In this document: one piece after another, positions 5,873 to 23,147 of the stretch
How the letters are laid out: every line of letters starts with the position of its first letter
Numbering within the stretch: position 1 is the first letter of the stretch
Assembly: GCA_001805965.1 (NCBI GenBank)
Contig: MHHG01000052.1
Coordinates: forward strand, 13,930-77,929
DNA length: 64,000 bases
From: Omnitrophica WOR_2 bacterium RIFOXYA2_FULL_38_17
GTDB taxonomy: Bacteria; Omnitrophota; Gorgyraeia; Zapsychrales; Zapsychraceae
Direction: 5' to 3'
The notes under the pieces: generated by a model
Databases searched by the model: none
What the model was told of the DNA's origin: nothing
The model's input: the letters and a program-made list of their open reading frames with translations, nothing else
Translations under genes and position numbers: made by a program

Positions 5873-5966
5873 AATAATTAAGATTATATGATTTTGAGTT
5901 GCAAACTTAAATTATATCTCATATGATAAAGCGTAATTCAATTTAATCAAAGGAAAATTTAATAAT

Positions 5967-7025: not shown

Positions 7026-7058
7026 TATTTAATTTTGATAGCTATTGTTAACAAAATA

Positions 7059-7087
7059 ATTGACATAAGGATTCTCAATAAGTATAC
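7059..7087 (+). promoter_or_regulatory. Sigma70-like promoter: TTGACA, 17-nt spacer, TATACT
   Basis: TTGACA at 7059-7064 and TATACT at 7082-7087, upstream of the strong RBS AAAGGAGGAG of the 7117 ORF. Confidence 0.35.
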
Positions 7088-7116
7088 TGACTTCAAACAT
7101 AAAAGGAGGAGTTAAA

Positions 7117-7617
7117 ATGTTAGCCTATTTATTAATTGTTTTAGGGGTAGTTTCAAGACTTATAGTTCATGTGCCGAATTTTACGCCAGTGATCGCGATC
7201 GCACTGTTCAGTGGTGTTTATCTAAAGAAGAAATATGCTGTTGTGCTTATGTTGGCATTGATGGCAATTACAGATGTGTTTTTAGGATTTCATAATATAA
7301 TGTTCTTTACCTGGGGCAGCTTTGCCTTGATAGCGGTTTTGGGAACAACAATGAAGGGTAAAGTGAATTTCAAGTCGATTTTTTCAGGAAGTTTGTTAGC
7401 AGCGATCTTTTTCTTTGTTGTTACTAATTTTGGTGTTTGGCTGGTATCAGGTATGTATGAAAGATCTTTTGCCGGGCTTGTCACTTGTTTTACAATGGCA
7501 ATCCCGTTCTTTAGATACACGGCAGCAAGCGCATTAATCTATTCATTTGTTTTATTTGGCGGATATGAGCTTATTGCCTCAAGGATCAAAAGTACGCGTT
7601 TAGCTACTGCTCTTTAA
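7117..7617 (+). CDS. Small polytopic membrane protein (function unknown)
   Basis: 166 aa with 4-5 hydrophobic helices and a strong RBS; no catalytic motif. Confidence 0.5.
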   Translation: MLAYLLIVLGVVSRLIVHVPNFTPVIAIALFSGVYLKKKYAVVLMLALMAITDVFLGFHNIMFFTWGSFALIAVLGTTMKGKVNFKSIFSGSLLAAIFFFVVTNFGVWLVSGMYERSFAGLVTCFTMAIPFFRYTAASALIYSFVLFGGYELIASRIKSTRLATAL

Positions 7618-7624
7618 AACTGCT

Positions 7625-7860
7625 TTCGCTGTATAGGCCCTCTTCGAGAGGATAATAAGGAAATACCTGTGATCTGTCTTAGGCAGAGAATCAGGAGCGG
7701 TCCCGCCGCTGTGATAGAGATAAAAGTCTCTTAAGCCAGAATACTGCCATACAGATAATTATCAAATACTGCGTGCGGACAGTATTAGGTGATCATATAT
7801 TTAGGAAAAAGACTCAGGGTGCACTCCTAATCGATTAAGTTCGATTAGGAGTTTTTTTTG
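7625..7860 (+). promoter_or_regulatory. Cobalamin (B12) riboswitch with terminator-type expression platform, controlling the downstream TonB-dependent receptor
   Basis: AATAAGGAAATACCTGTGA, then a B12 box GCGGTCCCGCCGCTGTGA (7697-7714), then AGCCAGAATACTGCC. These match conserved cobalamin-riboswitch (RF00174) core elements. Followed by a perfect 11-bp hairpin plus T8. Confidence 0.8.
7824..7859 (+). terminator. Intrinsic terminator (riboswitch OFF-state hairpin)
   Basis: CTCCTAATCGA / TCGATTAGGAG perfect 11-bp stem, 6-nt loop, TTTTTTTT. Confidence 0.75.
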
Positions 7861-7911
7861 TACCAGAAAGGTAAATAAATACCCTGGAGTTAAATTAAAA
7901 AGGGAGAAAAC

Positions 7912-9915
7912 GTGAAAAAGAAAATTAGTTTGTTTTTGGTTGCAGTGTTTTTAGTTGTATCGCCAGCAGTGTATGCGCAACAAACGTTTGAAGAGCAATT
8001 AGGGCGAATAATAGTTACAGCAACACGTATTGGCCAGCATGATTATAAGATAACTGGAAATGTCACTGTAATTGACAGGGATCAGATCGAGGCGTCAAAT
8101 GCGCAGAGTGTTCCTGATGTTTTGAAAGAGGCCTTAGGTGTTTCAATCTCAGATAATAGCACGACAAAGACGTCAAAGCTCGATATCAGAGGTTTTGGCG
8201 AAACTGCTGTCAGTAGTGTTTTGTTCCTTGTAAATGACAGAAAGACAAATTCGATTGATATGTCAGGCTCAGACCTTGTGCAGATACCTATTGAATCAGT
8301 TGAAAGAATAGAGATCATTAGAGGTGCTGGTTCTGTTCTTTATGGGGATAATGCTGTCGGAGGGGTTGTCAATATTATTACAAAAAAAGGCGAAGGTGCT
8401 GCTTCTGGCCAGGTTGGTGTTTCCTATGGAAGTTATGATAAAAGAGCGACTAATTTAGAGGTATCCGGAGAGAAGAAAAATATCTCTTATTATGTAAGCT
8501 CAAAATATACCGATGAAAGGGGATATCGTCAGAATAGTGATATGCTGGCTAAGGATTTCAACGGGAGATTTGGCTATAAATTTTCAGATAAAATATCCCT
8601 GGATGTTGAAACGGGCTGGCATGAAGATGATTATGGACAGCCGGGAAGTTTGACAGAGGCGCAGCTTATTTCATTAGGCAGAAGAGGTTCGCCTAATGAA
8701 GATGATACCGCGGCGACAAGGGACAGGTTCATCAATTTCTCATTTGATGTCAATCCATGGCCTGAAGATATGGACTTTGGTAAATTGATCGTTGATGTAA
8801 GCTACAGGAACAGGGATGCTTACACGGATAATGTCGCCTGGTCAAGCACGACAAAGAATCAGATAGACACAAAAGGTGTTAATGCAAAATATACTTTTGA
8901 CAGGACTATATTTGATAAAGAGGTTAATTTTGTTACAGGTATTGATTATTATGATAATGAACATGAAATATTAAGGGAAGCGGGCAGTACAACGGAACTG
9001 GTCATTTCAAAAGAGGAATTTGGTATTTATGGCTTCCTGGAATATGAATTGATCGACGATGTTTTCATTAACGGAGGGACAAGGTTCCATAAAGCGGAAT
9101 ATAATTTCAATCAAAGGAACGGGACTGCAGATGATAGCCAGGACCCTGACAAATGGGTTTCTATGGCAGGGATCAAATATGAATATGCCAAGGGATCCAA
9201 TATTTATGCTAATGTCCAGGAGACCTTCCGGTTTTTAGCAACGGATGAATGGTTCAATACTATCAGCGGGGTTTTGAACTCGGACCTTAAGCAGCAAGAA
9301 GGCATGCAGTATGAGATCGGTTTAAAGCATAATTTTAATGATAAGGTTGAGCTTAATGTTACCCCGTACGTGATCGATATCGAGAATGAGATCTATTATA
9401 ATCCTACAGGCGGTAATTTCGGTTGGGGGGCGAACGAGAATTATGATAAGACCCGCAGGATCGGGGTTGAAGTCGGAAGCAGGTTCAATATCCTGAAGTT
9501 CTTTGACTTTGATTTCTTTAATGACCTGGAATTCTTCACTAATTATACTTATCAAAATCCGCAGTTCCAAAAAGGTGATTATGATGGCGAAGATATTCCT
9601 TTGGTACCAAGGCATCAGGCAGGATTCGGGATCATTGCAAAGTTTCTTGAAAGTTACAATGTTTCATTGTTAGGCCGTTATGTCGGAACAAGATTTGTAG
9701 GCAGTGACACAGCGAATGCCTTAACCCCGCTTAAACCGCATTTTATTGTTGATGGTAAACTTGCATATACAAAAAAGAACATGGAGATCTACGCCGAGGT
9801 GAACAATATCTTTGATGAAGAGTATTCGACCTATGTGTCATCATGGAGCACGACAAAGTATTATTATCCGGCACCTGAAATGAATTTTAATTTTGGGGTT
9901 AATTTGAAGTTCTGA
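7912..9915 (+). CDS. TonB-dependent outer-membrane receptor, likely corrinoid/B12 transporter (BtuB-like)
   Basis: GTG start after an AAGGGAG RBS; signal peptide; TonB box/plug region (IIVTATR); C-terminal aromatic residue (NLKF) typical of beta-barrel OMPs; sits directly under the B12 riboswitch. Confidence 0.82.
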   Translation: MKKKISLFLVAVFLVVSPAVYAQQTFEEQLGRIIVTATRIGQHDYKITGNVTVIDRDQIEASNAQSVPDVLKEALGVSISDNSTTKTSKLDIRGFGETAVSSVLFLVNDRKTNSIDMSGSDLVQIPIESVERIEIIRGAGSVLYGDNAVGGVVNIITKKGEGAASGQVGVSYGSYDKRATNLEVSGEKKNISYYVSSKYTDERGYRQNSDMLAKDFNGRFGYKFSDKISLDVETGWHEDDYGQPGSLTEAQLISLGRRGSPNEDDTAATRDRFINFSFDVNPWPEDMDFGKLIVDVSYRNRDAYTDNVAWSSTTKNQIDTKGVNAKYTFDRTIFDKEVNFVTGIDYYDNEHEILREAGSTTELVISKEEFGIYGFLEYELIDDVFINGGTRFHKAEYNFNQRNGTADDSQDPDKWVSMAGIKYEYAKGSNIYANVQETFRFLATDEWFNTISGVLNSDLKQQEGMQYEIGLKHNFNDKVELNVTPYVIDIENEIYYNPTGGNFGWGANENYDKTRRIGVEVGSRFNILKFFDFDFFNDLEFFTNYTYQNPQFQKGDYDGEDIPLVPRHQAGFGIIAKFLESYNVSLLGRYVGTRFVGSDTANALTPLKPHFIVDGKLAYTKKNMEIYAEVNNIFDEEYSTYVSSWSTTKYYYPAPEMNFNFGVNLKF

Positions 9916-9935
9916 TAAGATTAAGAAGTAATAAA

Positions 9936-9978
9936 AAGGGGTCATTTGGTAGGGATTTGCTGAATGGCCCTTTTTGTT
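9936..9978 (+). terminator. Putative intrinsic terminator after the TonB-receptor gene
   Basis: AAGGGGTCATT...AATGGCCCTTT imperfect stem (with G-U wobbles) followed by TTTTGTTG. Confidence 0.4.
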
Positions 9979-10442
9979 GTAAATAGTGAAACAATTTGAA
10001 TGTATTAAGAAATGTGATACTATACTCATATTAGTTTACCTATGTTTATTTTTATTAAAAGAAAAGTTTAATGTTTTTTCATGCTTTCATGTTCTTTCTT
10101 TTCTTCCTGATAGTTTATCATGTTTATATTCGTGTTCATCATCGATGACAAAAGATCACGATGTTTTTGGGAGAGATAGAATAATTTGCTTGGTTATTTA
10201 TAATTTATTTATTGGAAGAAACATAGAGTTTTGCTTGCAGTGGGTCACATTGTGTTATAAGCATTTTAGATAAATAACTGAAAGAGTTCAGATTTTATTT
10301 GCTAAAGTTTTATATCCTTGTGAGATTTGATTCAGATTATTAACGTTATAGGTTTAAGTTGTATCTGCAATTCCTAGCATTAATTTTGTACCAAGTCAAT
10401 TAAGTTTACATAAATATCATTCTACAGAACAAGGAGGTTTTA

Positions 10443-12848
10443 ATGGCGCGGGGATTTTTTACCAATAATAAAAAGTTTTGTTTGTTTCTAGGATCTCTTT
10501 TATGCGTTATTGTTGTTGGTTGGTTATTGTTTTGTACAATCGGATACACTTTTATTGATAATGTGTATTATGAAAGGCTTTCCCCGCAATTAAATAGTAT
10601 AATTAGAGGCAAAAGTGCTTATCCTGTTCAACATTATTATGATCTTGCTAATAAGCTTATTGGCGGTTTTCTCTTTAATCTTCCAATTTTAGTTTGTTTT
10701 TTGCTTCTAATCTTTAGGCCAACATTCTTAAAATCTCTTCTTCCTTGGGACAAATGGTTTAAAAAACATACAGAGGATATTGACTCAATACCAGCTGCGC
10801 AGTTGGGATTATGGATTGTTTTAGCAGCAGCAGTAGGGCTATATGCGGAGTTGATGATCATTCGTATTCATTCATCGTTTTTTCAGCTTTTTGCATATTT
10901 TAAGAACATTAGTTTATTGTCATGTTTTCTCGGTTTGTGTATTGGTTTTGCACGTGGGAATAAGAAGCCTTTGCAGACTCCTGTTGTTTTGCCGATGATA
11001 ACAATGCAGATCTTGTTTTTGTTTAATTTGAGACATTCACCTATTGCAAAGCTACTTCAGAATCCTGTGTCAGAACAATTAGGAATGGGTATCAGTCAGA
11101 TAACGGGTCTTCTGACACTGTTTGTCACATATGGATTCCTTCTTTTTATTTTTGTTGTTAATATGTTTTGTTTTATTCCCTTAGGGCATTTGGTTTCACG
11201 TCTTATGTCAAAGCAGGACAAACTTGTGTCTTATAGTTGGAATCTTATTGGTAGTATTGCTGGGGTAATACTGTTTGGAGTTATCTCCTTTTTGTGGGCT
11301 CCGCCGATTCTTTGGCTTTTCATATGTGCGCTAGGGGTTATGGCGTTTCTCTATAAGGATAATAAAAGCATTGTTATTTCATTACTATGTATTTTCCTCA
11401 TTGTTTTATTCTTTTCTATCCCAACTCAACTTGATGAATACGATATCTATTCTCCATATCAAACGCTTACTTTGCGTATTGACCAAGGGGGGAGGCCTAT
11501 TAAGATCAAGACAAGTAATGTTTATCTTCAAAAGATCTTGGATCTAAGTAAGGAAGAGAAAAAAGAACATGATACAGAGGCAAGCTCTAAAGCTTATTAT
11601 GATTTTCCATATGTTTTCAAGAAAAATCCAAATAATGTTTTGATAGTTGGTAGCGGTACAGGTAATGATGTCTCAGCAGCTCTTCATAATAATGCTCAAA
11701 GAATTGACGCAGTTGAAATTGATCCTGCAATCATGGGTTTTGGAAAAGCTATTCATCCGGAGTTTCCTTACCAATCTGAAAAAGTTAATGCCATAGTTGA
11801 TGATGCGAGGGCATATTTCAGAAAAGCAAATAGCAAATATGATATTATTGTATATGCACTGTTAGATTCTCATATGTTGTTGTCAGGTCGAGCAGGCAAT
11901 ATGCGTTTGGATAGTTATGTTTATACGGTTGAGAGTTTCCAGGAGGCAAAAAATCTTCTTAAATCAGATGGTATAATTTGTTTGTCATTTTCTGTTCTTG
12001 ATGAGAATCTGGGAAAAAAGCTCTATAAAATGTTAGCTATGGCTTTTGATGGAAAGAATCCACTTGTGTTTAGAAGCAGTTACGATGGAAGCTTAACTTT
12101 TATTGCGGGAGAGGCTGTAACAGCACAACAATATTCAAGTCTTAATGAAGTTGAAAATATTACACATGAATTTTTAAATGATCAAAGTAAAGTAGACATT
12201 TCAACTGACGATTGGCCGTTTTTTTATATGCCTAAGAGAAAATATCCGAAATCATATTTTATGATTTTTTCTATATTGTTTCTCTTGTCGGGTTTTTATG
12301 TTAGAAAGTATATGTCTGTATCTGGCACAGAAGGCGGTTTCTCATGGCCTTGTTTTTTCTTAGGCGCTGGATTTATGCTTATTGAAACTAAGGGAATAAC
12401 TGAATTAGCATTGATCTATGGCAGTACATGGTTTGTTATAAGTATTGTTATATTAGCGATCCTTATTATGGCGTTCTTTGCTAATTTATTGGTCATTAAA
12501 CGGAAAGAGCCGTCTAGTTATGTAACCTATGGATTGCTTTTTGTTGCGATATTGATTGGATATTTTTTCACTTATTTGCACTCTGTGATGTCTATTTCAT
12601 TGAGCCGCATTGTTGTTCCAATGATTATTACATTACCATTATTCTTCTCTGGATTTGCATTTTCAACTGAGCTAAAAAAATCATCTTCGATAGGAGTTGC
12701 ATTATCTTCGAATTTATTGGGAGCTATGTTGGGTGGATTTCTAGAATATAATTCAATGTATTTTGGTTTTCGTTCGCTTTATATTATTGCATTGTTCACT
12801 TATGTTCTTGCTTTTGCGTCATCTGTTTTAGCATTGAAAAGGACATAA
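10443..12848 (+). CDS. Polytopic membrane protein fused to a spermidine-synthase-like (class I SAM/dcSAM-binding aminopropyltransferase fold) domain
   Basis: 801 aa with more than 12 hydrophobic helices flanking a central soluble domain carrying VLIVGSGTGNDV...DAVEIDPAI (spermidine-synthase-like GxGxG and acidic loop). Confidence 0.6.
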   Translation: MARGFFTNNKKFCLFLGSLLCVIVVGWLLFCTIGYTFIDNVYYERLSPQLNSIIRGKSAYPVQHYYDLANKLIGGFLFNLPILVCFLLLIFRPTFLKSLLPWDKWFKKHTEDIDSIPAAQLGLWIVLAAAVGLYAELMIIRIHSSFFQLFAYFKNISLLSCFLGLCIGFARGNKKPLQTPVVLPMITMQILFLFNLRHSPIAKLLQNPVSEQLGMGISQITGLLTLFVTYGFLLFIFVVNMFCFIPLGHLVSRLMSKQDKLVSYSWNLIGSIAGVILFGVISFLWAPPILWLFICALGVMAFLYKDNKSIVISLLCIFLIVLFFSIPTQLDEYDIYSPYQTLTLRIDQGGRPIKIKTSNVYLQKILDLSKEEKKEHDTEASSKAYYDFPYVFKKNPNNVLIVGSGTGNDVSAALHNNAQRIDAVEIDPAIMGFGKAIHPEFPYQSEKVNAIVDDARAYFRKANSKYDIIVYALLDSHMLLSGRAGNMRLDSYVYTVESFQEAKNLLKSDGIICLSFSVLDENLGKKLYKMLAMAFDGKNPLVFRSSYDGSLTFIAGEAVTAQQYSSLNEVENITHEFLNDQSKVDISTDDWPFFYMPKRKYPKSYFMIFSILFLLSGFYVRKYMSVSGTEGGFSWPCFFLGAGFMLIETKGITELALIYGSTWFVISIVILAILIMAFFANLLVIKRKEPSSYVTYGLLFVAILIGYFFTYLHSVMSISLSRIVVPMIITLPLFFSGFAFSTELKKSSSIGVALSSNLLGAMLGGFLEYNSMYFGFRSLYIIALFTYVLAFASSVLALKRT

Positions 12849-12903
12849 ATGATAGTAATCAAAATTGCATGAAAAAAAAGAAATAAATTGAAAGGGGCAG
12901 AAA

Positions 12904-13134
12904 GTGGATATTAAGGAACGGTTAAATAAGGTTTTCAAAGATGTTTTTGATGATGATTCTCTTGAAATTAATGAAACGATGACAGCAGAAGATGTGGATA
13001 TGTGGGATTCTCTTATGCATATTACGCTTATTGTTGCCATTGAGAGAGAATTTGGTATAAAATTTAATACTTCAGATGTTAATTCTTTAGAAAATGTTGG
13101 AAGTTTAATTGAAAAAATAAAAGAACGTTCTTAG
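12904..13134 (+). CDS. Acyl/peptidyl carrier protein (DltC/ACP-like)
   Basis: 76 aa; GTG start after an AAAGGGG RBS; DMWDSLMHITLI phosphopantetheine-attachment Ser motif in a 4-helix ACP-sized protein. Confidence 0.8.
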   Translation: MDIKERLNKVFKDVFDDDSLEINETMTAEDVDMWDSLMHITLIVAIEREFGIKFNTSDVNSLENVGSLIEKIKERS

Positions 13135-13184
13135 ATTGGTTTTAGGGGTAATAGTAACTAAGAACGGTTTATAAAAAATATTGT

Positions 13185-14930
13185 TTGGGATTTGCGGTTA
13201 TAGTGGATTTTTTAAAGTTAAAAAAGAACCTAAAAAAAGATTTTTCAAAGTTTCAGATCGTAAAAATTGCGATATTGGGAGATAATGCGACACAATTATT
13301 TGCTCAAGCTTTGAAGGGATATGGTTATGAGATTAGTATCAATTTTGACATTTTTGAAGCTGATTACAATCAGATAGACCTGCAGATATTTGATAGATCT
13401 TCTGAATTTTACAAGTTTAAACCAGAATTTGCTGTTCTCGCATGTTCCTCTCAAAAACTTCTTAAAAAATTCTATAAGCTCAATGATGTGCAGAAGGCAG
13501 TTTTTGCTAGTGAACAGATAAACAAGATTGAATCTGAGGTGAAGACCATTCTTGACAATCATCCTTGCAGGGTAATTTATTTTAATTACACAGAAAGCGA
13601 TGATAATATTTATGGAAATTATTCCAACAAGGTCAAGGAATCCTGGCTTTATCAGATTAGGAAAATTAATCTGGATTTGATGAACCTTAGTCAGGATATT
13701 TGTAATTTATTCATAAATGATATTTGCTCCTTACAGCATCAATATGGAAGAAGATTTGTTCATGATGCTAAATTTTATGTCAATGCCGATATGGTATTTA
13801 GCGTCGATTCCCTTCCGATCATCGCAAAGAATGTGACGGACATTGTTTTAGCTGTAAATGGAAAATTAAAAAAATGCTTAATATTGGACTTAGATAATCT
13901 TTTGTGGGGTGGAGTAATTGGCGATGATGGGGTCAATGGCATAGAATTGGGTGATCTAGGTATAGGAAAAGTATTTGTTGAGCTTCAAGAGTGGATAAAG
14001 CAGTTGAAAGATCGGGGTATTATTCTTGCCGTATGCAGTAAGAATGATGAGGATAATGCAAAAGAGCCTTTTGAAAAACATCCAGACATGGTTCTTAAGT
14101 TGGATGATATTGCTGTTTTTGTATCCAATTGGGAAAACAAATCCGAGAACATCAAGCATATTCAAGCTGTTCTCAATATTGGTTTTGATTCCATGGTATT
14201 TCTTGACGACAATCCTTTTGAGCGGGAGATAGTGCATTCCTTTATTCCGGACATTTCTATTCCTGACTTACCTGAAGATCCATCAGAGTATTTAGATTTT
14301 ATAAAGAGTTGTAACTTTTTTGAAACAGCTTCGCATTCTTCAAATGACAGCAATCGGACTAAGCAGTATCAACAGGAAGCAAAGAGAAAAGGAATTCAAA
14401 AAAACTTTGCAAATGAAGATGAATTTTTAGCAAGTTTAGGAATGCAATCGGATGTTAAAGAGTTTGATGAGTTTACCATTCCAAGAATTGCGCAATTAAC
14501 CCAAAGATCCAATCAGTTTAATTTGAGGACTATAAGATATTCTGAAGATGATATTCGAAGAATATCTGAGTCTAAAGATCACCATGGATTATCTTTTACT
14601 CTTGAAGATAAGTTTGGTGATTATGGTTTGATAAGCGTTGTTATCCTGGAGAATAGAGGCAAGGAATTGTTTGTTGATACCTGGATCATGAGTTGCAGGG
14701 TGCTCAAAAGAGGGGTTGAAAAATTTGTTTTTAATCAAGTTTTAAAATACGCACAGACCAATGGATGTCAGCGAATTGTTGGAGAGTATATCCCTACGGC
14801 AAAAAATAGTATTGCAAAAAATCTTTATGAAGATTTGGGTTTTTCTTGTGAGTCTGGATATTGGTATGTTGATGTAAAGGGCTCTGATATGAAGGCTAAC
14901 TTAATTAAACATAATGTGAATTGTATTTAG
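13185..14930 (+). CDS. FkbH-like HAD-superfamily (subfamily IIIC) protein with C-terminal GNAT-like domain; putative carrier-protein loading enzyme
   Basis: LDLDNLLWGGVIGDDG HAD motif I in the FkbH arrangement, followed by a C-terminal acyltransferase-like domain; 581 aa; TTG start predicted; adjacent to the ACP. Confidence 0.7.
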   Translation: MGFAVIVDFLKLKKNLKKDFSKFQIVKIAILGDNATQLFAQALKGYGYEISINFDIFEADYNQIDLQIFDRSSEFYKFKPEFAVLACSSQKLLKKFYKLNDVQKAVFASEQINKIESEVKTILDNHPCRVIYFNYTESDDNIYGNYSNKVKESWLYQIRKINLDLMNLSQDICNLFINDICSLQHQYGRRFVHDAKFYVNADMVFSVDSLPIIAKNVTDIVLAVNGKLKKCLILDLDNLLWGGVIGDDGVNGIELGDLGIGKVFVELQEWIKQLKDRGIILAVCSKNDEDNAKEPFEKHPDMVLKLDDIAVFVSNWENKSENIKHIQAVLNIGFDSMVFLDDNPFEREIVHSFIPDISIPDLPEDPSEYLDFIKSCNFFETASHSSNDSNRTKQYQQEAKRKGIQKNFANEDEFLASLGMQSDVKEFDEFTIPRIAQLTQRSNQFNLRTIRYSEDDIRRISESKDHHGLSFTLEDKFGDYGLISVVILENRGKELFVDTWIMSCRVLKRGVEKFVFNQVLKYAQTNGCQRIVGEYIPTAKNSIAKNLYEDLGFSCESGYWYVDVKGSDMKANLIKHNVNCI

Positions 14931-14958
14931 AGGGATCCTGAATATTGGAAGGAAAAAT

Positions 14959-16053
14959 TTGATGGATAATAAAAGAAATATTGTGAAGCAACTAAAGATT
15001 ATTAGCGCATTTCTTTTGTTTTCTTTTACATTGATTGTTGTCGCAGAAGTAGGCATTCGGATATTTTATCCGCAAATGTACAAAACAACTTATTTGGATG
15101 AGTTTTCTCCGGGCATTGAGGATGAGCAATTGGGGACTATTTTTGCACCAAATGCAACCTGGATCATTGAGAGACCAGAGTTTAAAGTAACACATTATAC
15201 AAATAGTCAGGGTTTGGCTGACAAAACTAATCATATTATTCCTAAACCAAAAGGATTGAAACGGATCTTAGTTTGTGGAAGTTCTAATACTTTTTCAGAA
15301 GGTGTCGAGCAAGATGAGGGATGGCCCGCTATTCTTGAAAGTGAACTTTTGCGAAAGGGTTATAATGTTGATGTTGTTAAAGCAGGGATGTTTGCTTTTG
15401 ATACGGCATCAACAGTTCTTTTTATGGAGAGAATTTTTGATAAATATCAACCCAACTATGTTGTTATCTCTGTTGATTCTGCTGTGATTCTCACCAATGC
15501 GCCAATGTCGAAATTTCAAGAAAAAAAGAAACAAAGTGATTATAATTTTAAAATTGCACATAAGCCCAAGAAGGATTTGCACCTTATCAGTCTGATTAAA
15601 AGAATTATTCGGATGAATGATATTGTCTATTCTCATTACAATATGAAGAAAGGGTGGGCCCCAATTTTTGAAGTAGACGGAGAATTTAGAAGAAATCAAA
15701 TTGAGATAACGAAGGAACTCTTATTGAGGGCTAAAGAGTTTGTCTCAAAAAAAGGTGCTTCTTTGGTAGTTTTATCAATACCAGAAAATACACAAACTCT
15801 TATAAAAGCGAATAATATTCAAATTGAGAACATTGACCCTGAAATTAATGATAAAGCATTGGCGGGATTTTCTAAGTCTCAGGATATTTTTTGGCTTTCT
15901 ACACTAACACCTTTGTCCGAGAATTATAAAAGAGAAAGAAAAAAATTGTACCATAGACTAGATGGACATTTAAACAGAAATGGACACAGAATTATTGGTG
16001 AGTTTTTGTCTGATCAGTTTGAGGGGCTTTTTAAAGATAGCAAAACAAAGTAA
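14959..16053 (+). CDS. SGNH/GDSL-fold hydrolase or acyltransferase, N-terminally membrane-anchored (DltD/AlgJ-like role)
   Basis: N-terminal TM helix; block I ILVCGSSNTF (catalytic Ser); C-terminal DGHLNRNGH (DxxH block V). Confidence 0.6.
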   Translation: MMDNKRNIVKQLKIISAFLLFSFTLIVVAEVGIRIFYPQMYKTTYLDEFSPGIEDEQLGTIFAPNATWIIERPEFKVTHYTNSQGLADKTNHIIPKPKGLKRILVCGSSNTFSEGVEQDEGWPAILESELLRKGYNVDVVKAGMFAFDTASTVLFMERIFDKYQPNYVVISVDSAVILTNAPMSKFQEKKKQSDYNFKIAHKPKKDLHLISLIKRIIRMNDIVYSHYNMKKGWAPIFEVDGEFRRNQIEITKELLLRAKEFVSKKGASLVVLSIPENTQTLIKANNIQIENIDPEINDKALAGFSKSQDIFWLSTLTPLSENYKRERKKLYHRLDGHLNRNGHRIIGEFLSDQFEGLFKDSKTK

Positions 16054-16243
16054 ATGAAGCAATAATTTCTCCCTTGTAGGAAATCAATTCATTACATTTG
16101 AAGTTTTAACAATGAGCATTTATATCTGATTGTATTTGATAGGGGATAGTTGCTGATTAAAGTGAACATGAGGCCGAAGGCCGAGTGAACTTGATCAGTA
16201 GCTATCGCCTGTTTAGTAATCAGAGGAAAAAGATAATGCTCTA

Positions 16244-17668
16244 CTATAAAACTTGATAAATAAACTGAGGGGTGTTATCTGTGAAGAAAAGAGCAGTAAT
16301 TATAATTGCTAAAAACTTAATGCTCAATGAAAGAAACGAGGAGTATAGCTTCAAATTTTCAGGTAGGAATTTTGTCAATTTTAAAAGGGGTTTCTCGATA
16401 GCGACAAGCAAAAGTTTTATGAAGGCGAGAATCATAGTGCCAACTGCGAAAGTTGCAAATAATCCTGTGAATGATAATGATCTTATAAGCCAAGAGATTC
16501 TTTGTGCGCTTAGAAAAAGGCATGATGTACTTATGAACATGTAGCTGAAAGTCAATCCAGAGGTAAAAGTGTTAAAAATAATATTATTATTTAGCTTAGA
16601 ATAGTTTTCTTTGCTCAATTTTTGGCGGCAAAGGTTGTCGTAAAGTTTGTTGAGGCTAACTCCAGTTCCTAGGAGGAGTCCATAAATAACTGATGAAAAT
16701 GTAGATCCATGCCACAAGCCCACGATGAAAAACGTAATAAAATATGCAATGATGCCAAATAGATTGAACAATTTAGGACTATTGTTCATGATTACAAATT
16801 TCTTTAATATTGGATTAAAGATAAATGTTTTAAACCAGTTTGATAGTGTGATGTGCCAACGACTCCAAAAATCTAAGAGACTTGTTGCCCGAAATGGTTG
16901 ATTGAAATTTTCAGGTAACTTAAAACCAATGATTTGTCCAATTGTAATGATGATATCCATGTATCCAGCAAAATAAATATATATGTACAAATAGTAGAAG
17001 CTGGATGCTCCAAAATATGTGTAAATATTCTGAGGATTTGAATAAAAAGATGTAGCTAAATTTTCATAAATTATATGGAAAAGTGGGGCTATCAGTAAGA
17101 TTTTAAGGTATCCATTAACGAGTCTTTTGCAGTGAATGAGGAAATCGAAGTAAATGTTTTTATTGTTGAGGTCTTTCAGCTGAGCCTTGAAGTCTTTGAA
17201 GGACTGTATGGGCCCAGATATGTAACATAAATAAAAACAAACATAATTAAAAAAGTCAAAAATTCCAATTTTTTCTTTATATTGTCGTTCATTTACATCA
17301 ATCATAAGGTGAATAACTCTAAAAAGAATGAAGGAAAAGCCAATGGATAAATAGGGTTTATTGTAAAAAGGGACGAAGAATAGAAAGGCATATTTTTTTA
17401 AATATATGAATATTCCGATTAATAGTAGTAGCAAAAATAGAAAGGCATTCTTAAAGCATTGTTTTTCAATAAGTTTTATGGCTGTAAAACAAAAAACCAG
17501 GAAAAGTCCTAGGGGTATTAATTCATAAGGACTTTTGGCCAGAAGACAAAGAAAAGTAATATTAAGAATAGCTATACCCAAAGATTTGAATGTCTTAATG
17601 GGTGTAATATGAAACGCTAAAAATGTTAAAAATATATAGATTGTAAACTGTTTTGAGGCAATATTCAT
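16244..17668 (-). CDS. MBOAT-family membrane-bound O-acyltransferase (DltB/AlgI-like)
   Basis: 474 aa, polytopic; conserved MBOAT His region FWSRWHITLSNWFKTFIFNP. Confidence 0.85.
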   Translation of the reverse strand: MNIASKQFTIYIFLTFLAFHITPIKTFKSLGIAILNITFLCLLAKSPYELIPLGLFLVFCFTAIKLIEKQCFKNAFLFLLLLLIGIFIYLKKYAFLFFVPFYNKPYLSIGFSFILFRVIHLMIDVNERQYKEKIGIFDFFNYVCFYLCYISGPIQSFKDFKAQLKDLNNKNIYFDFLIHCKRLVNGYLKILLIAPLFHIIYENLATSFYSNPQNIYTYFGASSFYYLYIYIYFAGYMDIIITIGQIIGFKLPENFNQPFRATSLLDFWSRWHITLSNWFKTFIFNPILKKFVIMNNSPKLFNLFGIIAYFITFFIVGLWHGSTFSSVIYGLLLGTGVSLNKLYDNLCRQKLSKENYSKLNNNIIFNTFTSGLTFSYMFISTSCLFLSAQRISWLIRSLSFTGLFATFAVGTMILAFIKLLLVAIEKPLLKLTKFLPENLKLYSSFLSLSIKFLAIIITALFFTDNTPQFIYQVL

Positions 17669-17760
17669 AAAATTTTTTATAATGACATTCTTGTTAATAT
17701 TTGATTTTTATGTATAATACTTTGAATATTATTTAATCTAAGATAACAAATTGAAGCTAA

Positions 17761-18708
17761 ATGTCAAAAACTCTTTCAAAAAACTTAAATGAAAAAGTTC
17801 CCAATGAATATCCTCTACTGAAAGATTGTTTGATGTATTTGAATAACAATTTTTCTCTATATTCAACAGCAAACAACTATATATTAAACAATTTTGATGA
17901 TAACTATTATTTGTCTTCAGAAGAACTTTTAAGAATCATGATGCGCATGACTGGGGGAAAAGAGGGTTTGATGAAGTCCTTAGATTCTCTGGTCCAGGTT
18001 TCAAGAGGGATGATGCTATCACAAGCGCGTTTGAAGATGAACGGAAAATATGAGTTTAGCTCCTTTGAAGAGGTAAATGCAAATTTTTATCAAAATAAGG
18101 ATGTAATTATTGGGCATATGGATGCACTGTTGATATCTCAAGTTTTTTGGCCAAATCATTACAAATTTGGCCAATTCTTTATCAATTTATCAGATTTAAC
18201 GAATTCGAGTTCAAAAGTTTTAGATATTCCGTCTGGTGATGGGATCTTTAGTTATTATTTATCAAAGTGTTTTTCTTTTAAAGAGCTTCATTGTGTTGAT
18301 ATCAGTTCTTATTGTATTGATTACACTAAAAAATTTCTTGAAGCATCTAATTTGGGCACTGATAAAATTTATTATATGGTAAAAGATGTTTTTGATTTTT
18401 CTGAAAGTGAAGTGTATGATTTTATTGTTTGTGGTGAACTTTTGGAGCATGTTGAAAATCCAGAGCGATTATTAGGAAAACTGAAAACATTGACTAATAA
18501 CGATGGCAGGATATTTTTAACTACAGCAATATTTTCTGCATCAGAAGATCATATTTATCTGTTTAATAATGTAGATGAGGTCAGGGATATGATTAATAAT
18601 CATTTTGTTATTGAGTCAGAGTTAATATTACCGTCTTCTTTAAAGGACTATGATCCGAGTATGGAAAAAGAAGCTATTAATTATGCTTGTGTAGTGAGGG
18701 TAAAGTGA
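17761..18708 (+). CDS. Class I SAM-dependent methyltransferase
   Basis: Motif I VLDIPSGDGIFSYYL and acidic motif II (VCGELLEH). Confidence 0.7.
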   Translation: MSKTLSKNLNEKVPNEYPLLKDCLMYLNNNFSLYSTANNYILNNFDDNYYLSSEELLRIMMRMTGGKEGLMKSLDSLVQVSRGMMLSQARLKMNGKYEFSSFEEVNANFYQNKDVIIGHMDALLISQVFWPNHYKFGQFFINLSDLTNSSSKVLDIPSGDGIFSYYLSKCFSFKELHCVDISSYCIDYTKKFLEASNLGTDKIYYMVKDVFDFSESEVYDFIVCGELLEHVENPERLLGKLKTLTNNDGRIFLTTAIFSASEDHIYLFNNVDEVRDMINNHFVIESELILPSSLKDYDPSMEKEAINYACVVRVK

Positions 18709-19103
18709 AAGAAGTTTATCGGCTAAATGTATTGGGGGATGATGTTGTCTTTCATCATATTGGAATTGTTACAAAATCCATGGATGAAATTATTGATCCT
18801 AAGCTAAAAATTGAAGATCCTATCCAAAAAGTAAGAGTCGCATTTGCTGATATGCATGGATTGCAGGTTGAGCTTATTGAACCATTAGGGGACGAATCTC
18901 CAGTACATAAATTTCTAAAAAAGAAACAGTATTTCTATCATTTGTGTTTCTCGGTAAAGGATGTTGAAAGAACTTTGGAAATATCCAAGGAAAATGACTT
19001 TTACTGTGTTTCTAGACCAGCTAAAGCGGTTGCCTTTGGTAATAATAAGATTGCTTGGATTTACAGTAGGGAATATGGGTTAATAGAATTGCTTGAAAGA
19101 TAG
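18687..19103 (+). CDS. VOC/glyoxalase-family protein (methylmalonyl-CoA-epimerase-like)
   Basis: VFHHIGIVTKSMDE N-terminal metal-binding His motif typical of VOC epimerases. The start may be GTG 18705, overlapping the upstream stop as GTGA. Confidence 0.6.
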   Translation: MCSEGKVKEVYRLNVLGDDVVFHHIGIVTKSMDEIIDPKLKIEDPIQKVRVAFADMHGLQVELIEPLGDESPVHKFLKKKQYFYHLCFSVKDVERTLEISKENDFYCVSRPAKAVAFGNNKIAWIYSREYGLIELLER

Positions 19104-19145
19104 CAAGTACAATATTTGTTTTAATAGAAAAAGGAGCTTGATTTA

Positions 19146-20747
19146 ATGGATGCTTTAGTTATTGGTGGCCATTATTCCGAAGATAGAATTGATACTATGC
19201 GTCATGTAGATGATTTTCGTTTGGAATATGACGGCGTTCCCATGACGACAAAAAATTTAAAAGAATTTTTTCGGAACAATAGATCTTTTAAAGATGCCGA
19301 ACGAAGACAAAGAGAAGAAATTTATCGCCCTTATCGACAAATCTATTACCCTTCGCTTCATATTTATAATTATATATCTCAAAATGGTTATAATGCCGCT
19401 TTGCTTAATTGTCATTGTCCTCAGGATGAAAAACGATTCGAAGTGTTTAAGCAGAATCCAAAAGTTGTTATTTTATCTACAACATTTATGAATATGGAGG
19501 CAGTACGTTTAGTTGCAAAAGATATAAAACAGTACTTGCCTGATACAAAAATTATTGTTGGAGGGGGATATGTTCGTCATTCTTATTTAATATGGCAGAG
19601 GATCGAAGATCCTTATTACAATATGCATGAAGTTCAGACTAGATATTTTTTTACATCAAATAATCCTGTTCAAGAAGTTGATGCTTATATTTTTGACGAA
19701 CATGGTGAAGAAACATTGTTGATGTATTTGGATGCAGTCAAGAAAGGCAAATCAATAGATTCTATTCCTAATATTGCAACTTATAATGGCAAGAATTTTG
19801 TTTTTAATAAAGAGGCTCCAGAAGAATTTAACATGAATAAATGTCGTATTCACTGGGAGAAGATTCCTAGAGAATATCTAAGCTTAGTGATGCCGTTCTC
19901 AGTAACTTATGGGTGTCCATTTAAATGTAATTTTTGCAATTTCAGGAGCGTTAGTCTTTCTAAGAAATCATTAGATACTATTTTTGCTGAATTAAGAGAG
20001 ATTTCCAATTTAGGTATTGTTCAAAAGATATGGTTTTCTGACGACAATTTTCTTTTGACGCCTAAGCAGGTTGAACAGTTTTGTGAGCGGTATATTCAAG
20101 AAGGATTTTCTTTTCGTTGGATGAGTTTTATTAGAGCGAATTCTATTACGTCCAAAACGGTTGATTTAATGAAAAAGAGCAATGCAGAGTTATTAGTTTT
20201 AGGGTTAGAATCAGGAAGTCCCACAGTTCTTGAAGCTATGAATAAGCAAGATATCTTGAAAGATGTCCATCGTGCAATGTCGCTTTTAATGAGTAACAAT
20301 ATAGATACAGAGATTTCATTCATTATAGGTCATCCAGGGGAAACTGATGATACGGTTAAGGAAACAATAGACTTTATTAACGCTATGCCTTACTCTGATG
20401 AGCAAATTCCCTATTTATATCTTTTTAAATTTTATTTGGCACCTTTGTCGAGAATATTCGAAAAGCAAATGAGAGACCAATGGGGCCTTGAGGGAGCATT
20501 TCTAGATTGGAAGCATAAAACGATGGATTCGGATTATGCAAGTGCTATGTTGAAAAAGGTGGCGCTTTCTGTCCAGAAACCTGTGTTTAATTATTTAGAT
20601 GGATATTCTTCCAAGAGCAAAAAGGAATTGGTCAAATTTATGAGGAAGCGGGATAGCCTGTCAAGAGCCGTGTTGTCTGGAAAGCCAGATAATGTTGTTG
20701 ATGCTTTGTGGGATGAGCTTGAGACTTTGACTTTTTCAAGAAGTTAG
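19146..20747 (+). CDS. B12-binding-domain radical SAM enzyme (class B)
   Basis: N-terminal Rossmann-like B12-binding region, then VTYGCPFKCNFCNF (CxxxCxxC). Confidence 0.85.
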   Translation: MDALVIGGHYSEDRIDTMRHVDDFRLEYDGVPMTTKNLKEFFRNNRSFKDAERRQREEIYRPYRQIYYPSLHIYNYISQNGYNAALLNCHCPQDEKRFEVFKQNPKVVILSTTFMNMEAVRLVAKDIKQYLPDTKIIVGGGYVRHSYLIWQRIEDPYYNMHEVQTRYFFTSNNPVQEVDAYIFDEHGEETLLMYLDAVKKGKSIDSIPNIATYNGKNFVFNKEAPEEFNMNKCRIHWEKIPREYLSLVMPFSVTYGCPFKCNFCNFRSVSLSKKSLDTIFAELREISNLGIVQKIWFSDDNFLLTPKQVEQFCERYIQEGFSFRWMSFIRANSITSKTVDLMKKSNAELLVLGLESGSPTVLEAMNKQDILKDVHRAMSLLMSNNIDTEISFIIGHPGETDDTVKETIDFINAMPYSDEQIPYLYLFKFYLAPLSRIFEKQMRDQWGLEGAFLDWKHKTMDSDYASAMLKKVALSVQKPVFNYLDGYSSKSKKELVKFMRKRDSLSRAVLSGKPDNVVDALWDELETLTFSRS

Positions 20748-20803: not shown

Positions 20804-21460
20804 ATGATAAAACTTTATTCTATTGAGAAAGAAAGAAGCCAAAGATTAATTGCAAGGAATAAAAATGTGACAGTAGATGAGCAGGCATTTAATCGATATG
20901 TCTCGGAATTCCCAGTAATTCCAGATAGGAAGCAAATTTTTGCTGCATATGAATTTGCAAAGCAAATTGAATATATTCATCCAGGGTTATCCAGCGCTGA
21001 TTATCTTGTTCATCCTGTTAGAGTTGCATGTCTTGCTTTACAGATTGACCCACCAGTTGACGTCGATACTATTGTCATTGCTTTATTGCATAATGTACTT
21101 GAAGTGTCGGTTCTTACATTTGAGGACATGCGAGAAAAATTTAATAGTAGGGTAGCAGGTTCAATGAAAGCTCTTACTGTTGACCGTTCTCGCCAATATA
21201 ATCGTGAGTATAAGGCTTCCTATTATCAAAAAATCAATGAGTTATTTCTTGGAGGACGTATTGTAAAAATATTAGATAAGTTAGATAATTTGTTCTTGCT
21301 GTGTTTTAATAGTGATGATGAGATTAGAAGAATATATTTGCAGGAGATCGAAGATTATATAATTCCAATGGTTGATCGAGATTTAAAAGAGCTCTCAAAA
21401 TATATGCGAGAGCTTGTTGAGGATTGTCGTAAGATTGGATACATGACGAAAAAGAGATAA
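20804..21460 (+). CDS. HD-domain phosphohydrolase (SpoT/RelA-hydrolase-like)
   Basis: HPVRVA...LLHNVLEVS arrangement resembling the H...HD metal-binding motif of HD hydrolases. Confidence 0.5.
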   Translation: MIKLYSIEKERSQRLIARNKNVTVDEQAFNRYVSEFPVIPDRKQIFAAYEFAKQIEYIHPGLSSADYLVHPVRVACLALQIDPPVDVDTIVIALLHNVLEVSVLTFEDMREKFNSRVAGSMKALTVDRSRQYNREYKASYYQKINELFLGGRIVKILDKLDNLFLLCFNSDDEIRRIYLQEIEDYIIPMVDRDLKELSKYMRELVEDCRKIGYMTKKR

Positions 21461-21464
21461 AAAA

Positions 21465-22538
21465 ATGAAATTATTTCAACCAGATATTTTTTCTGTTCCG
21501 TTTCCAGCCTTTGTGACTGTAACAGATGATGTTTTTAGCAAGATAGGGGAATTATTGGAACAGCAGTATGATATTAAAACTAATGCTATAAGAAAAATTG
21601 AGCAGGTGAAGGGAAATGAAATAAATTCAAACAATTTTAAAGTAGAAACTGATTCAATGTTTTTGTTTGTAAAAAGGAATGTCCTGCACGACAATATATA
21701 TGAATTAACAAGAATGCTTGATCTGACAAATTGGCTTCAAGAAAGAATGAAAGCTTTTTTTAAAATTATTCCGTGTAATAATGGAAGTTTGGTGTCACAG
21801 CAGGGTAGGGCTCTATGGTCTGTTTCTGAATTTATTCCAGGAAGATATTTTTCTGGTGAAAGTATTGATGAGCTGAAAGCTGTAGGCCATTCTATTGGTG
21901 GGATGCATGATGTTTTGAGGGATATCCCTTCTCACTTGTGTCCGAAAAAAAAAATAAAGCTTTTTCCGATTGATTCTGAAAAAATAATTGATGAAACTTT
22001 TTCTAGACGGGAAGAATGGGTAGATGTTTTTGGAGAGGATCTTGCTCCCATAATAGAAGATAATACAGATTTAATGCTCTCTACTTGTGCGTTGATAAAT
22101 TCAAATAAAGAGACTATCTTCAGAAGACAAACGCAGACTTGCCATATTGATCTTCATCCTCATAATATTTTTGTCAATGATGGCGTTATTCATTTTATTG
22201 ATCTGGATTCTTTGGTTTTAACCAAGCCTTGTGTAGCCATTGGGTTCTCAATTTATAAGCTCATGAAGCAATATTCTATAAGGCAAAAATTAGTTGATAA
22301 TCCTAGCAAAATTGCTGAAGATGCAAGGGGCTTCTTGTTTTCTTTGCAAGAGAAGTTCGCTTTTTCAGATGAAGAAATAAGAGTACTTTATTTATCGGCA
22401 ATTGCTGAAATATTTAGAAGGATACTTATCATACTTCGTCTTAGTTTATATGAAAATAATAAGTGCTGGAATTTTGTTCTTCCTATTCATTTGTCTGGGA
22501 TAAAAGAGACAGAAATAATTTTTAGTGCTATTAAGTGA
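21465..22538 (+). CDS. APH/choline-kinase-family small-molecule kinase (phosphotransferase)
   Basis: HIDLHPHNIFVNDGVIHFIDLDS (HxDxxxxN catalytic loop plus DxD Mg-binding), typical of aminoglycoside/hydroxyl phosphotransferases. Confidence 0.6.
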   Translation: MKLFQPDIFSVPFPAFVTVTDDVFSKIGELLEQQYDIKTNAIRKIEQVKGNEINSNNFKVETDSMFLFVKRNVLHDNIYELTRMLDLTNWLQERMKAFFKIIPCNNGSLVSQQGRALWSVSEFIPGRYFSGESIDELKAVGHSIGGMHDVLRDIPSHLCPKKKIKLFPIDSEKIIDETFSRREEWVDVFGEDLAPIIEDNTDLMLSTCALINSNKETIFRRQTQTCHIDLHPHNIFVNDGVIHFIDLDSLVLTKPCVAIGFSIYKLMKQYSIRQKLVDNPSKIAEDARGFLFSLQEKFAFSDEEIRVLYLSAIAEIFRRILIILRLSLYENNKCWNFVLPIHLSGIKETEIIFSAIK

Positions 22539-22574
22539 TTGTGAATACTAATTAAAACAGAAAGAGGCCCGAAA

Positions 22575-23147
22575 ATGATAAAAGAACTTGTGAAGAAGGC
22601 GCGAAGTTATAGGAGATTCTATCAAAATGAACAAATTAGTGAGAAAATTCTAAGAGAATTAATTGATTTGGCTAGGTTGGGAGGTTCCGCCATCAATAAA
22701 CAGCCATTGAAATATATGATTGTTAATACGCCAGAAACAAATGCAAGGATTTTTGATACTCTTGGATGGGCGGGGCTTTTGCCTGATTGGTCAGGGCCAG
22801 AAGAGGGTGAGCGGCCATCTGCATATATAATTTGTTTTCTTGATACAAGTATAAGCGAGAGGGCTGAGGTAGACTTGGGAATTGCTACCCAAAATATATT
22901 ATTAGGTGCTGTTGATAGAGAATTAGGCGGGTGTAGAATTGGTAATTTTACTACAGAAATTAACAATATTATCAAAATACCAGAGAATTTAAAAGTTATG
23001 TTAGTTATTGCGTTAGGTAAACCAAAAGAAAAGGTTATCGTTGAGTCAATGCCTTCAAATGGAGATTTTAAATATTGGAGGGATGAAGAAGGGATTCATT
23101 ATGTTCCAAAAAGGTCTCTTGAAGAAGTATTAGTTAAGAAGTTATAA
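22575..23147 (+). CDS. Nitroreductase-family flavoprotein
   Basis: 190 aa; N-terminal RRSYRRF motif, the conserved FMN-contacting start of the nitroreductase fold. Confidence 0.7.
   Translation: MIKELVKKARSYRRFYQNEQISEKILRELIDLARLGGSAINKQPLKYMIVNTPETNARIFDTLGWAGLLPDWSGPEEGERPSAYIICFLDTSISERAEVDLGIATQNILLGAVDRELGGCRIGNFTTEINNIIKIPENLKVMLVIALGKPKEKVIVESMPSNGDFKYWRDEEGIHYVPKRSLEEVLVKKL

Follow-up and report, generated by a model that had tools for sequence, protein, structure and literature searches.

What a carrier protein, an FkbH-type enzyme, an SGNH-fold protein and a membrane-bound acyltransferase of the MBOAT family could be doing side by side, with no adenylating ligase to charge the carrier found among the larger open reading frames of the surrounding window, is the question raised by one region of the genome of Omnitrophica WOR_2 bacterium RIFOXYA2_FULL_38_17. 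The window is the whole stretch of 64,000 nucleotides that we analysed (contig MHHG01000052.1, positions 13,930 to 77,929), and coordinates given without a locus name refer to it. A first-pass annotation made from the sequence alone had read the four genes as a Dlt-like, four-component relay in which the ligase DltA is replaced by the FkbH-type protein; an FkbH enzyme with a small carrier is known from antibiotic pathways, where the pair makes a glyceryl-carrier. Our results point to a somewhat wider scenario, in which a cassette of seven genes (12904-20747) probably attaches a small acyl group derived from glycerate, by an ester bond, to an extracytoplasmic glycan. Cassettes of this kind are spread over many bacterial phyla, and for that reason they are probably the sign of an undescribed route to glycerate-derived esters on cell-surface sugars. 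In the literature that we searched, no description of such an FkbH-MBOAT system was found, and as subscription journals lay mostly outside the coverage, a prior account is possible.

The carrier, its loader and the membrane partners

The first gene of the cassette encodes an acyl carrier protein (ACP) of 76 amino acids (12904-13134, plus strand), which matches PF00550 with 30.3 bits against a cutoff of 20.8. Its acceptor Ser36 lies in a WDSL context (W34-D35-S36-L37) and is 97% conserved among 77 cassette carriers of related loci. The protein reaches neither the AcpP nor the DltC equivalog cutoff and so belongs to neither of these families; an identical carrier gene was called on independent contigs. 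After a gap of 50 nucleotides follows the FkbH-type loader (13185-14930, plus strand, 581 amino acids, with a likely true start near 13200), in which an SGNH-like FkbH_N domain at about residues 27-221 (PF21211, E 5e-70) precedes a HAD-IIIC phosphatase domain at about 229-352 and a GNAT-like C-terminal domain bearing Cys504. The protein scores 319.8 bits against TIGR01686, whose curated cutoff is 146.65, along profile positions 3-322 of 323, and 68 against the HAD-IIIC model TIGR01681 with its cutoff of 35.75. Moreover, its residues 1-387 match the crystal structure 3SLR of Bacteroides fragilis BF1531 (E 7e-131).

In an alignment of 52 relatives, the HAD residues D235, D237, S285, K319 and D341-D342 are invariant, and so is the cysteine motif W500..M502-S503-C504-R505-V506. 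For comparison, FkbH sequences were taken from annotated plasmids in three polyketide or nonribosomal peptide synthetase (NRPS) settings, namely a Streptomyces canus operon with the order 3-hydroxyacyl-CoA dehydrogenase, carrier, acyl-CoA dehydrogenase and FkbH (the FK520-type or methoxymalonyl-ACP arrangement), an NRPS-linked FkbH homologue of B. thuringiensis, and the FkbH domain of a polyketide synthase (PKS) of Burkholderia FERM BP-3421. The HAD residues and S503-C504-R505-V506 are invariant against these three as well, at an identity of only 28-30%. As the FkbH homologues in polyketide and NRPS loci have only about 340-370 amino acids, against 581 in the window, the family found here adds the N-terminal SGNH-like domain. 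The published chemistry of FkbH enzymes is the conversion of 1,3-bisphosphoglycerate into glyceryl-ACP (PMC7489565).

The MBOAT acyltransferase (16244-17668, minus strand, 474 amino acids) matches PF03062 with 58 bits against a cutoff of 27. Among solved structures DltB is its nearest relative (6bug, E 9e-26), and it scores 156.4 bits against the DltB equivalog model TIGR04091, below the cutoff of 375. His272 (in RWH) and His320 (in WHG) are conserved in 100% of 120 homologues and both align to DltB. By hydropathy the protein has two extra transmembrane-like segments at its C-terminal side (397-431 and 439-464), after which it ends in FIYQVL, encoded at 16247-16264 on the minus strand. We take this ending for a fused acyl-shuttle motif of the FxYxxF type with Tyr471 as the presumed acyl acceptor; an ending of the [F/I/L]xYxxF type, for example FVYRAF or FVYKAF, is found in about 116 of the 120 homologues, with Tyr471 conserved in 99% and the terminal F in 97%. 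The FxYxxF "acyl shuttle" occurs in DltX and, in fused form, in PatA, AlgI and related proteins, and the acyl-tyrosine shuttle mechanism has been established for Dlt and for PatA/PatB (PMC12148441). No small ORF (open reading frame) with the motif, that is, no separate DltX-like microprotein, was found at 9-24 kb of the window.

Between the loader and the MBOAT lies the gene of an SGNH-fold protein (14959-16053, plus strand) anchored by a single N-terminal hydrophobic helix at residues 8-38, with a putative triad of Ser109 (in GSS), Asp335 and His337 (in DGH, where the family has DxxH in block V). The protein belongs to the SGNH fold, although the SGNH model was built on a very shallow alignment. 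A word-indexed homology search gave only 3 proteins, and the relatives were collected by exhaustive HMMER search as 162 cluster representatives at E<1e-30; among 107 full-length relatives G107, S109 and H337 are conserved in 100% and D335 in 95%.

These results bear out the first-pass annotation in the position and family of its four ORFs, as judged by ORF calls and profile matches, in the identity of the FkbH protein, which passes its family cutoff and keeps the HAD residues and the cysteine motif, and in the acceptor serine of the carrier. The lack of a DltA-like adenylation enzyme was likewise upheld: PF00501 (AMP-binding) was not reported by Pfam scans in 53 of the 54 window ORFs of at least 150 amino acids at thresholds of 1e-6 to 0.01, nor in the remaining one (38996-39661), scanned for PF00501 at 1e-6 only. 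The MBOAT gene had, on the other hand, been called divergently oriented, and this has to be corrected, since it is convergent with the ACP, FkbH and SGNH genes and divergent only from the methyltransferase gene downstream.

Recurrence of the linkage and extent of the cassette

The linkage was followed across genomes from both of its sides, with loci annotated by home-made ORF calls and hidden Markov models. A scan of genome contigs by exact patterns from a single FkbH protein gave 5 loci; an alignment-based metagenome scan therefore served as the working sample, and its 80 loci are the best matches to the FkbH protein of the window and hence a non-random set. A carrier was found in 69 of these 80 loci and an MBOAT in 40; where both flanks reach 4 kb or more, which is so for 26 loci, the counts are 26 and 18. 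Most of the complete MBOATs in this sample end in FIYFQF-type motifs. The MBOAT gene has the carrier gene as its immediate 5' neighbour in 22 of 39 cases, the two being between -34 and +26 nucleotides apart, and this abutment is kept even when FkbH is on the other strand. Looking outward from the MBOAT gave a similar picture: a protein with an FkbH_N domain occurs within 5-7 kb in 10 of 11 relatives (31-47% identity), and all of these 10 also have an adjacent carrier-sized gene of 82-108 amino acids, most of them verified as carriers by a PP-binding match or by our own carrier profile.

The third partner recurs as well. In most of the MBOAT relatives, a protein of 330-365 amino acids is encoded directly after the MBOAT, and in 18 of 23 loci the protein of 290-370 amino acids in this position belongs to one family, with a hydrophobic stretch at the N-terminus and the motifs G-x-S and DxxH-LN-GA. 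This family is homologous to the SGNH protein of the window (hhalign 97%, E 1e-10), and its best sequence match in the PDB is the SGNH domain of OatA. Some cassettes (L106:3839-7528 and L107:2523-4998) have two SGNH-like paralogues beside the MBOAT, which recalls AlgJ/AlgX, while the window has one.

The cassette has hosts in Bacteroidota, Proteobacteria and Omnitrophota, and the range of phyla with close FkbH homologues is wider still. For example in Dechloromonas and Rhodoferax, the cassettes lie inside exopolysaccharide loci with Wzx, glycosyltransferase and Bac_transf genes. Another case is plasmid pSymB of Sinorhizobium meliloti (locus L101, CP140955.1), examined in detail among 40 Sinorhizobium plasmid records with FkbH-like matches. 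There an MBOAT ending in FLYQGF, a protein of 409 amino acids, a carrier and an FkbH-like protein of 628 amino acids are encoded at 5642-10677, about 4 kb from genes of capsule biosynthesis and export (rkpR, an ABC transporter and KpsF, near K-antigen export). The 409-residue protein carries the doubtful annotation "TonB-dependent receptor" and gave no match to our own SGNH profiles.

Three further genes of the window have homologues in cassettes elsewhere, and for this reason we take the cassette to be larger than first noted and to span 12904-20747. The gene at 17761-18708 (plus strand) encodes by Pfam an S-adenosylmethionine (SAM)-dependent methyltransferase (Methyltransf_23), putatively tailoring the carrier-bound acyl group; it is 27-38% identical to 8 methyltransferases of related loci, 6 of which stand in MBOAT-containing cassettes and several of which sit between FkbH and carrier. 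The next gene (18687-19103, plus strand, with a likely start at 18705 overlapping the stop codon of the methyltransferase) encodes a protein of the VOC/glyoxalase fold resembling methylmalonyl-CoA epimerase (PF13669; TIGR03081 with 52.7 bits, below cutoff). It has homologues in at least 14 related loci, 10 of them clustering within FkbH/carrier/MBOAT cassettes. The last is a probable member, a B12-binding radical SAM enzyme of the class B methyltransferase type by Pfam and NCBIfam (19146-20747, plus strand), which is closer to FkbH-adjacent radical SAM enzymes elsewhere (L010, L091, L092 and L096-L098; E 1e-33 to 1e-49 at 66-85% coverage) than to the other three B12-binding ones of the window. 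All seven ORFs are intact.

With these three tailoring genes conserved in addition, it is probably a modified form of glycerate, and not glyceryl itself, that is transferred, and the likeness of the VOC protein to methylmalonyl-CoA epimerase suggests an epimerisation at C2 of the thioester. Three sets of tailoring genes recur in the cassettes, namely a MaoC dehydratase with an SDR protein, Methyltransf_23 with Glyoxalase_4 (VOC), and a MaoC dehydratase with a B12-binding radical SAM enzyme. Tailoring of a carrier-bound group by a methyltransferase, or by a dehydratase and a reductase, has precedents in polyketide FkbH modules: O-methylation occurs in methoxymalonyl-ACP synthesis, and the MaoC and SDR set presumably matches the conversion of glycerate to lactate in some FkbH-containing PKS loading modules.

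The predicted relay, its relatives and its rivals

How might these parts work together? The HAD domain of the loader would take 1,3-bisphosphoglycerate, and the glycerate thioester formed on Cys504 would pass to the phosphopantetheine arm at Ser36 of the carrier; this loading step rests on the established FkbH chemistry together with residue conservation. The methyltransferase, the VOC protein and the B12-binding radical SAM enzyme would then act on the acyl group while it is held by the carrier, methylating it at O or C and possibly epimerising it at C2. At the cytoplasmic face the carrier may hand its acyl group to the MBOAT, much as DltC hands its own to DltB, and what suggests this transfer is the gene linkage. 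The group would further pass through the His272/His320 channel to Tyr471 of FIYQVL, as acetyl does in PatA, and Ser109 of the SGNH protein would finally accept it for delivery to a hydroxyl group on some surface polysaccharide, probably the product of the surrounding nonulosonic-acid and glycan island. For the MBOAT and SGNH steps the prediction is drawn from the Dlt and PatAB mechanisms and from motif conservation; as the SGNH domain lies outside the membrane, an exported polymer rather than a cytoplasmic precursor is implied as the acceptor. The family and fold assignments, the conservation of catalytic residues and the linkage of the genes across phyla are direct observations, and from them we infer which substrate is used, which way the group is transferred, how it is tailored and where it ends up.

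The cassette resembles the Dlt system (DltA, DltC, DltB, DltX and DltD) in that a small carrier would present a thioester to an MBOAT with DltB as its closest solved relative, an SGNH-fold protein anchored outside the membrane would end the transfer, and the route would lead via an acyl-tyrosine of the FxYxxF motif (PMC12148441). It differs from Dlt by an FkbH-type HAD/GNAT loader in place of the adenylating DltA, by a shuttle fused to the MBOAT on two extra helices in place of a separate DltX, and by an acyl group that is presumably glycerate-derived and acted on by tailoring enzymes while carrier-bound, whereas Dlt transfers D-alanine. Moreover, it occurs in diderm or uncultured phyla, which have no teichoic acids, whereas Dlt is a Gram-positive system. 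Membership in the Dlt system was thus rejected, with the MBOAT under the DltB cutoff and DltA and DltX not found in the parts of the window searched for them.

With PatA/PatB, AlgI/AlgJ/AlgF/AlgX and WssH/WssI, the cassette shares the C-terminal FxYxxF motif fused on two additional transmembrane helices, a periplasmic partner of the SGNH fold and an extracytoplasmic polymer as target. Those systems have been described as acetyl-CoA dependent and carrier-less (PMC12148441), whereas here a carrier and a loader are conserved neighbours, which suggests that the description "acyl-CoA donor, no carrier" given for fused-shuttle MBOATs does not fit this one. Membership in the alginate system AlgI/J/F/X was rejected too, as no AlgF-, AlgJ- or AlgX-type partners and no alginate synthesis genes were found in Pfam scans of the window ORFs.

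The loading side is like the FkbH/FkbJ modules of polyketide pathways (methoxymalonyl-ACP, tetronates, lactate starters) in its catalytic residues and its stand-alone carrier (PMC7489565). In contrast to them, the product would presumably go to a membrane acyltransferase and not to a PKS or a FabH-like enzyme, the loader has the extra N-terminal SGNH-like domain (PF21211; PDB 3SLR), and the genes lie in a glycan locus and not in a natural-product cluster. A Dlt-like carrier feeding the decoration of a Gram-negative envelope molecule has its precedent in AlmEFG, which adds glycine to lipid A of Vibrio cholerae; there, however, AlmE is an adenylating ligase, AlmG is of the LpxL type and acts at the inner leaflet, and MBOAT, SGNH and FkbH proteins are all absent. 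Judging from the sequences, then, the cassette appears to be a hybrid design, with a membrane side like PatA/PatB, a use of the carrier like Dlt, and a loading step from polyketide biochemistry.

Accordingly the first-pass reading of a Dlt-like relay is supported for the carrier-fed MBOAT and SGNH pair, and gives way on the membrane side, which is PatA/AlgI-like with its fused tyrosine shuttle and no DltX. The four components it named are present within a unit that extends to 20747 and counts seven genes, and the glyceryl or hydroxyacyl unit that it placed on the carrier is supported by comparative genomics, with a modified glycerate as its more probable form. The neighbourhood search that it proposed for the trio of ACP, FkbH and MBOAT found them together in other genomes, in both samples; likewise the MBOAT is not an AlgI accompanied by AlgJ and AlgF, and is linked to the carrier (10 of 11 relatives, 22 of 39 abutting).

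Several points weigh against esterification by the relay. The support is comparative and structural throughout and not biochemical, the acceptor polymer is only putative, and MBOATs with a fused shuttle have been stated to use acyl-CoA and to lack carrier proteins (PMC12148441). In the window, the MBOAT ends in L and not in F, has Y at the N232 position, and lies on the strand opposite to the carrier and so is not co-transcribed with it. The SGNH protein is changed at near-invariant sites (GDS to GSS, G113 to S, R87 to A) and has lost the Asn-Asp of block III (the oxyanion hole, GxND), reading SAV where the family has ..NDL.. with D at 93%. The GD(S/T) motif of FkbH_N is GDN, and the extra SGNH-like N-terminal domain of this FkbH family has no assigned role. 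Finally, about 30% of the well-flanked FkbH-carrier loci have no MBOAT and have AT3, GNAT or NAT acyltransferases instead, so that the carrier module is not exclusive to MBOATs. For example, what follows the FkbH-carrier pair in L026 (9960-11006), L089 (8218-8841) and L075 (9795-11675) is an AT3 membrane acyltransferase (PF01757), a GNAT protein, or an aminoglycoside-NAT-like protein with a polysialyltransferase-like one. The presence of other acyltransferases after the carrier where the MBOAT is absent suggests that FkbH and carrier form a general acyl-supply module, which may feed several acyltransferase classes.

This last pattern, together with the reported association of the fused FxYxxF motif with carrier-less users of acyl-CoA (PMC12148441), also speaks for an arrangement of two independent systems, in which an acetyl-CoA-dependent MBOAT/SGNH O-acetyltransferase of the PatA/PatB or AlgI/AlgJ type would merely stand beside an FkbH/carrier pair for cytoplasmic acylation, supplying glyceryl or lactyl, for example, to the N-acylation of the nonulosonic-acid precursor of the island. 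The soluble GNAT or NAT partners of some MBOAT-less modules, the wealth of Pse/Leg-type sugar genes in the island and the opposite strand of the window MBOAT all fit it. Yet a chance neighbourhood hardly accounts for carriers that abut the MBOAT within -34 to +26 nucleotides in more than half of the loci even with FkbH on the other strand, or for an FkbH and a carrier-sized gene beside nearly every sampled MBOAT relative, and no soluble N-acyltransferase is conserved within the cassette; we hold two independent systems to be unlikely. A different doubt leaves the relay as proposed and concerns its cargo, for this FkbH-like family of about 575 amino acids might load something other than glycerate, such as another acyl phosphate or a phospho-sugar acid, and the extra SGNH-like N-terminal domain could play a part in this. 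That domain is absent from the short polyketide and NRPS proteins, to which identity is low, and the tailoring sets are diverse; nevertheless every catalytic residue common with those proteins is invariant, TIGR01686 is exceeded by far, and the MaoC and SDR set mirrors the glycerate-to-lactate logic of FkbH-containing PKS loading modules. A cargo other than glycerate thus seems to us distinctly unlikely.

There is also the case that the cassette is decaying or non-functional in this genome while the family functions elsewhere, to which the substitutions in the SGNH protein, the MBOAT and FkbH_N, at sites 90-98% conserved, would be due, as would the split FkbH, SGNH and radical SAM genes on the related contig L004. 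However, the seven ORFs are intact, the core residues are kept in every component (S109, H337 and D335; H272, H320 and Y471; D235, D237 and C504; Ser36), and an identical MBOAT protein is found on 23 contigs from different samples, which together make decay very unlikely. Esterification of an extracytoplasmic glycan by the seven-gene relay therefore remains the reading that we favour.

Beyond this genome, FkbH, carrier, MBOAT and SGNH may form a large cross-phylum family of carrier-dependent envelope acylation, in which the acyl group is set by the tailoring genes present; we regard this generalisation as evenly balanced between holding and failing. Under it, the group would be glyceroyl where tailoring genes are absent, lactyl with MaoC and SDR, and a methylated variant with a methyltransferase, VOC or B12-binding radical SAM enzyme. 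The family would then be the first carrier-dependent MBOAT pathway outside Dlt, and a source of polysaccharide modifications largely missed by structural surveys because such esters are labile.

The matter bears on more than classification, as acyl decorations of envelope polymers govern recognition by phages, antibodies, lysozyme and antimicrobial peptides. According to a mechanistic study of 2025, carrier proteins are missing from the non-Dlt MBOAT/SGNH pathways (PMC12148441), and the current division is a two-way split between Dlt, which is carrier-fed with a separate DltX, and the rest, which are acyl-CoA-fed and carrier-less with a fused shuttle; the cassette mixes both. If it is functional, MBOATs of the PatA/AlgI design can take carrier-bound donors, a central glycolytic intermediate is channelled straight into surface-glycan esters, and thousands of loci annotated only as "HAD-IIIC phosphatase / ACP / MBOAT" gain a predicted role. 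With S. meliloti pSymB, the cassette is present in a genetically tractable host where the prediction can be tested directly.

The glycan island and the source of the sequence

The window has about 33% G+C, 51 of its 54 ORFs of at least 150 amino acids lie on the plus strand, and the GC skew is positive throughout 1-64000, from 0.13 to 0.39 in all 2-kb bins. A scan of 12500-19500 for promoters and terminators gave 31 promoter-like sites against 32.7 in shuffled sequence, and since these sites are no commoner than in shuffled sequence, no operon structure is claimed. The gene immediately before the carrier gene (10443-12848) encodes a protein of 801 amino acids that has about nine hydrophobic segments and, at its centre, a spermidine-synthase-like domain; it was excluded from the cassette as none of the related loci has a homologue. 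On the 3' side, 20804-23870 holds the genes of an HD-domain protein, an APH-type kinase, a nitroreductase-like protein and a minus-strand cytidylyltransferase, of which no homologues were found beside other cassettes, a cytidylyltransferase of L069 being the one exception; these genes are probably a module of their own.

"Omnitrophica WOR_2 bacterium RIFOXYA12_FULL_38_10" has a protein with 100% identity to the MBOAT of the window, and the gene order of the window is also found on independent metagenome contigs. One of the related contigs (L004, ENA ERZ28564302) has an identical MBOAT together with split or shortened FkbH, SGNH, B12-binding radical SAM, HisF-like and cytidylyltransferase genes, which reflects either an assembly error or pseudogenisation in that population.

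According to Pfam and NCBIfam scans of the window ORFs, a large glycan island surrounds the cassette, with PseB/PseC-type enzymes, two NeuB-type synthases, four cytidylyltransferases, aminotransferases, many methyltransferases, four B12-binding radical SAM enzymes, an ABC exporter and a module for sulfate activation and sulfotransfer. Among the nonulosonic-acid genes, three large ORFs (34011-35924, 43972-45861 and 58856-60616; 637, 629 and 586 amino acids) gave no Pfam match even at E 1e-4 and are candidates for novel glycosyltransferases or polymerases. The sulfur module at 48977-52883 has the look of one that makes 3'-phosphoadenosine-5'-phosphosulfate and sulfates with it. It begins with a fusion of 729 amino acids that joins a pyruvate-kinase barrel, a PUA-like domain and an ATP sulfurylase, the pyruvate-kinase fusion being unusual, and continues with an adenosine-5'-phosphosulfate kinase (51163-51702) and a sulfotransferase-like protein (51699-52883). 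Besides the cassette member at 19146-20747, B12-binding radical SAM enzymes are encoded at 42566-43957, 57341-58849 and 60623-62185, and two SPASM radical SAM enzymes at 40799-41599 and 45904-46899. At least six SAM methyltransferases lie in the same island, and this abundance of radical SAM enzymes and methyltransferases implies heavy methylation of sugars or acyl groups.

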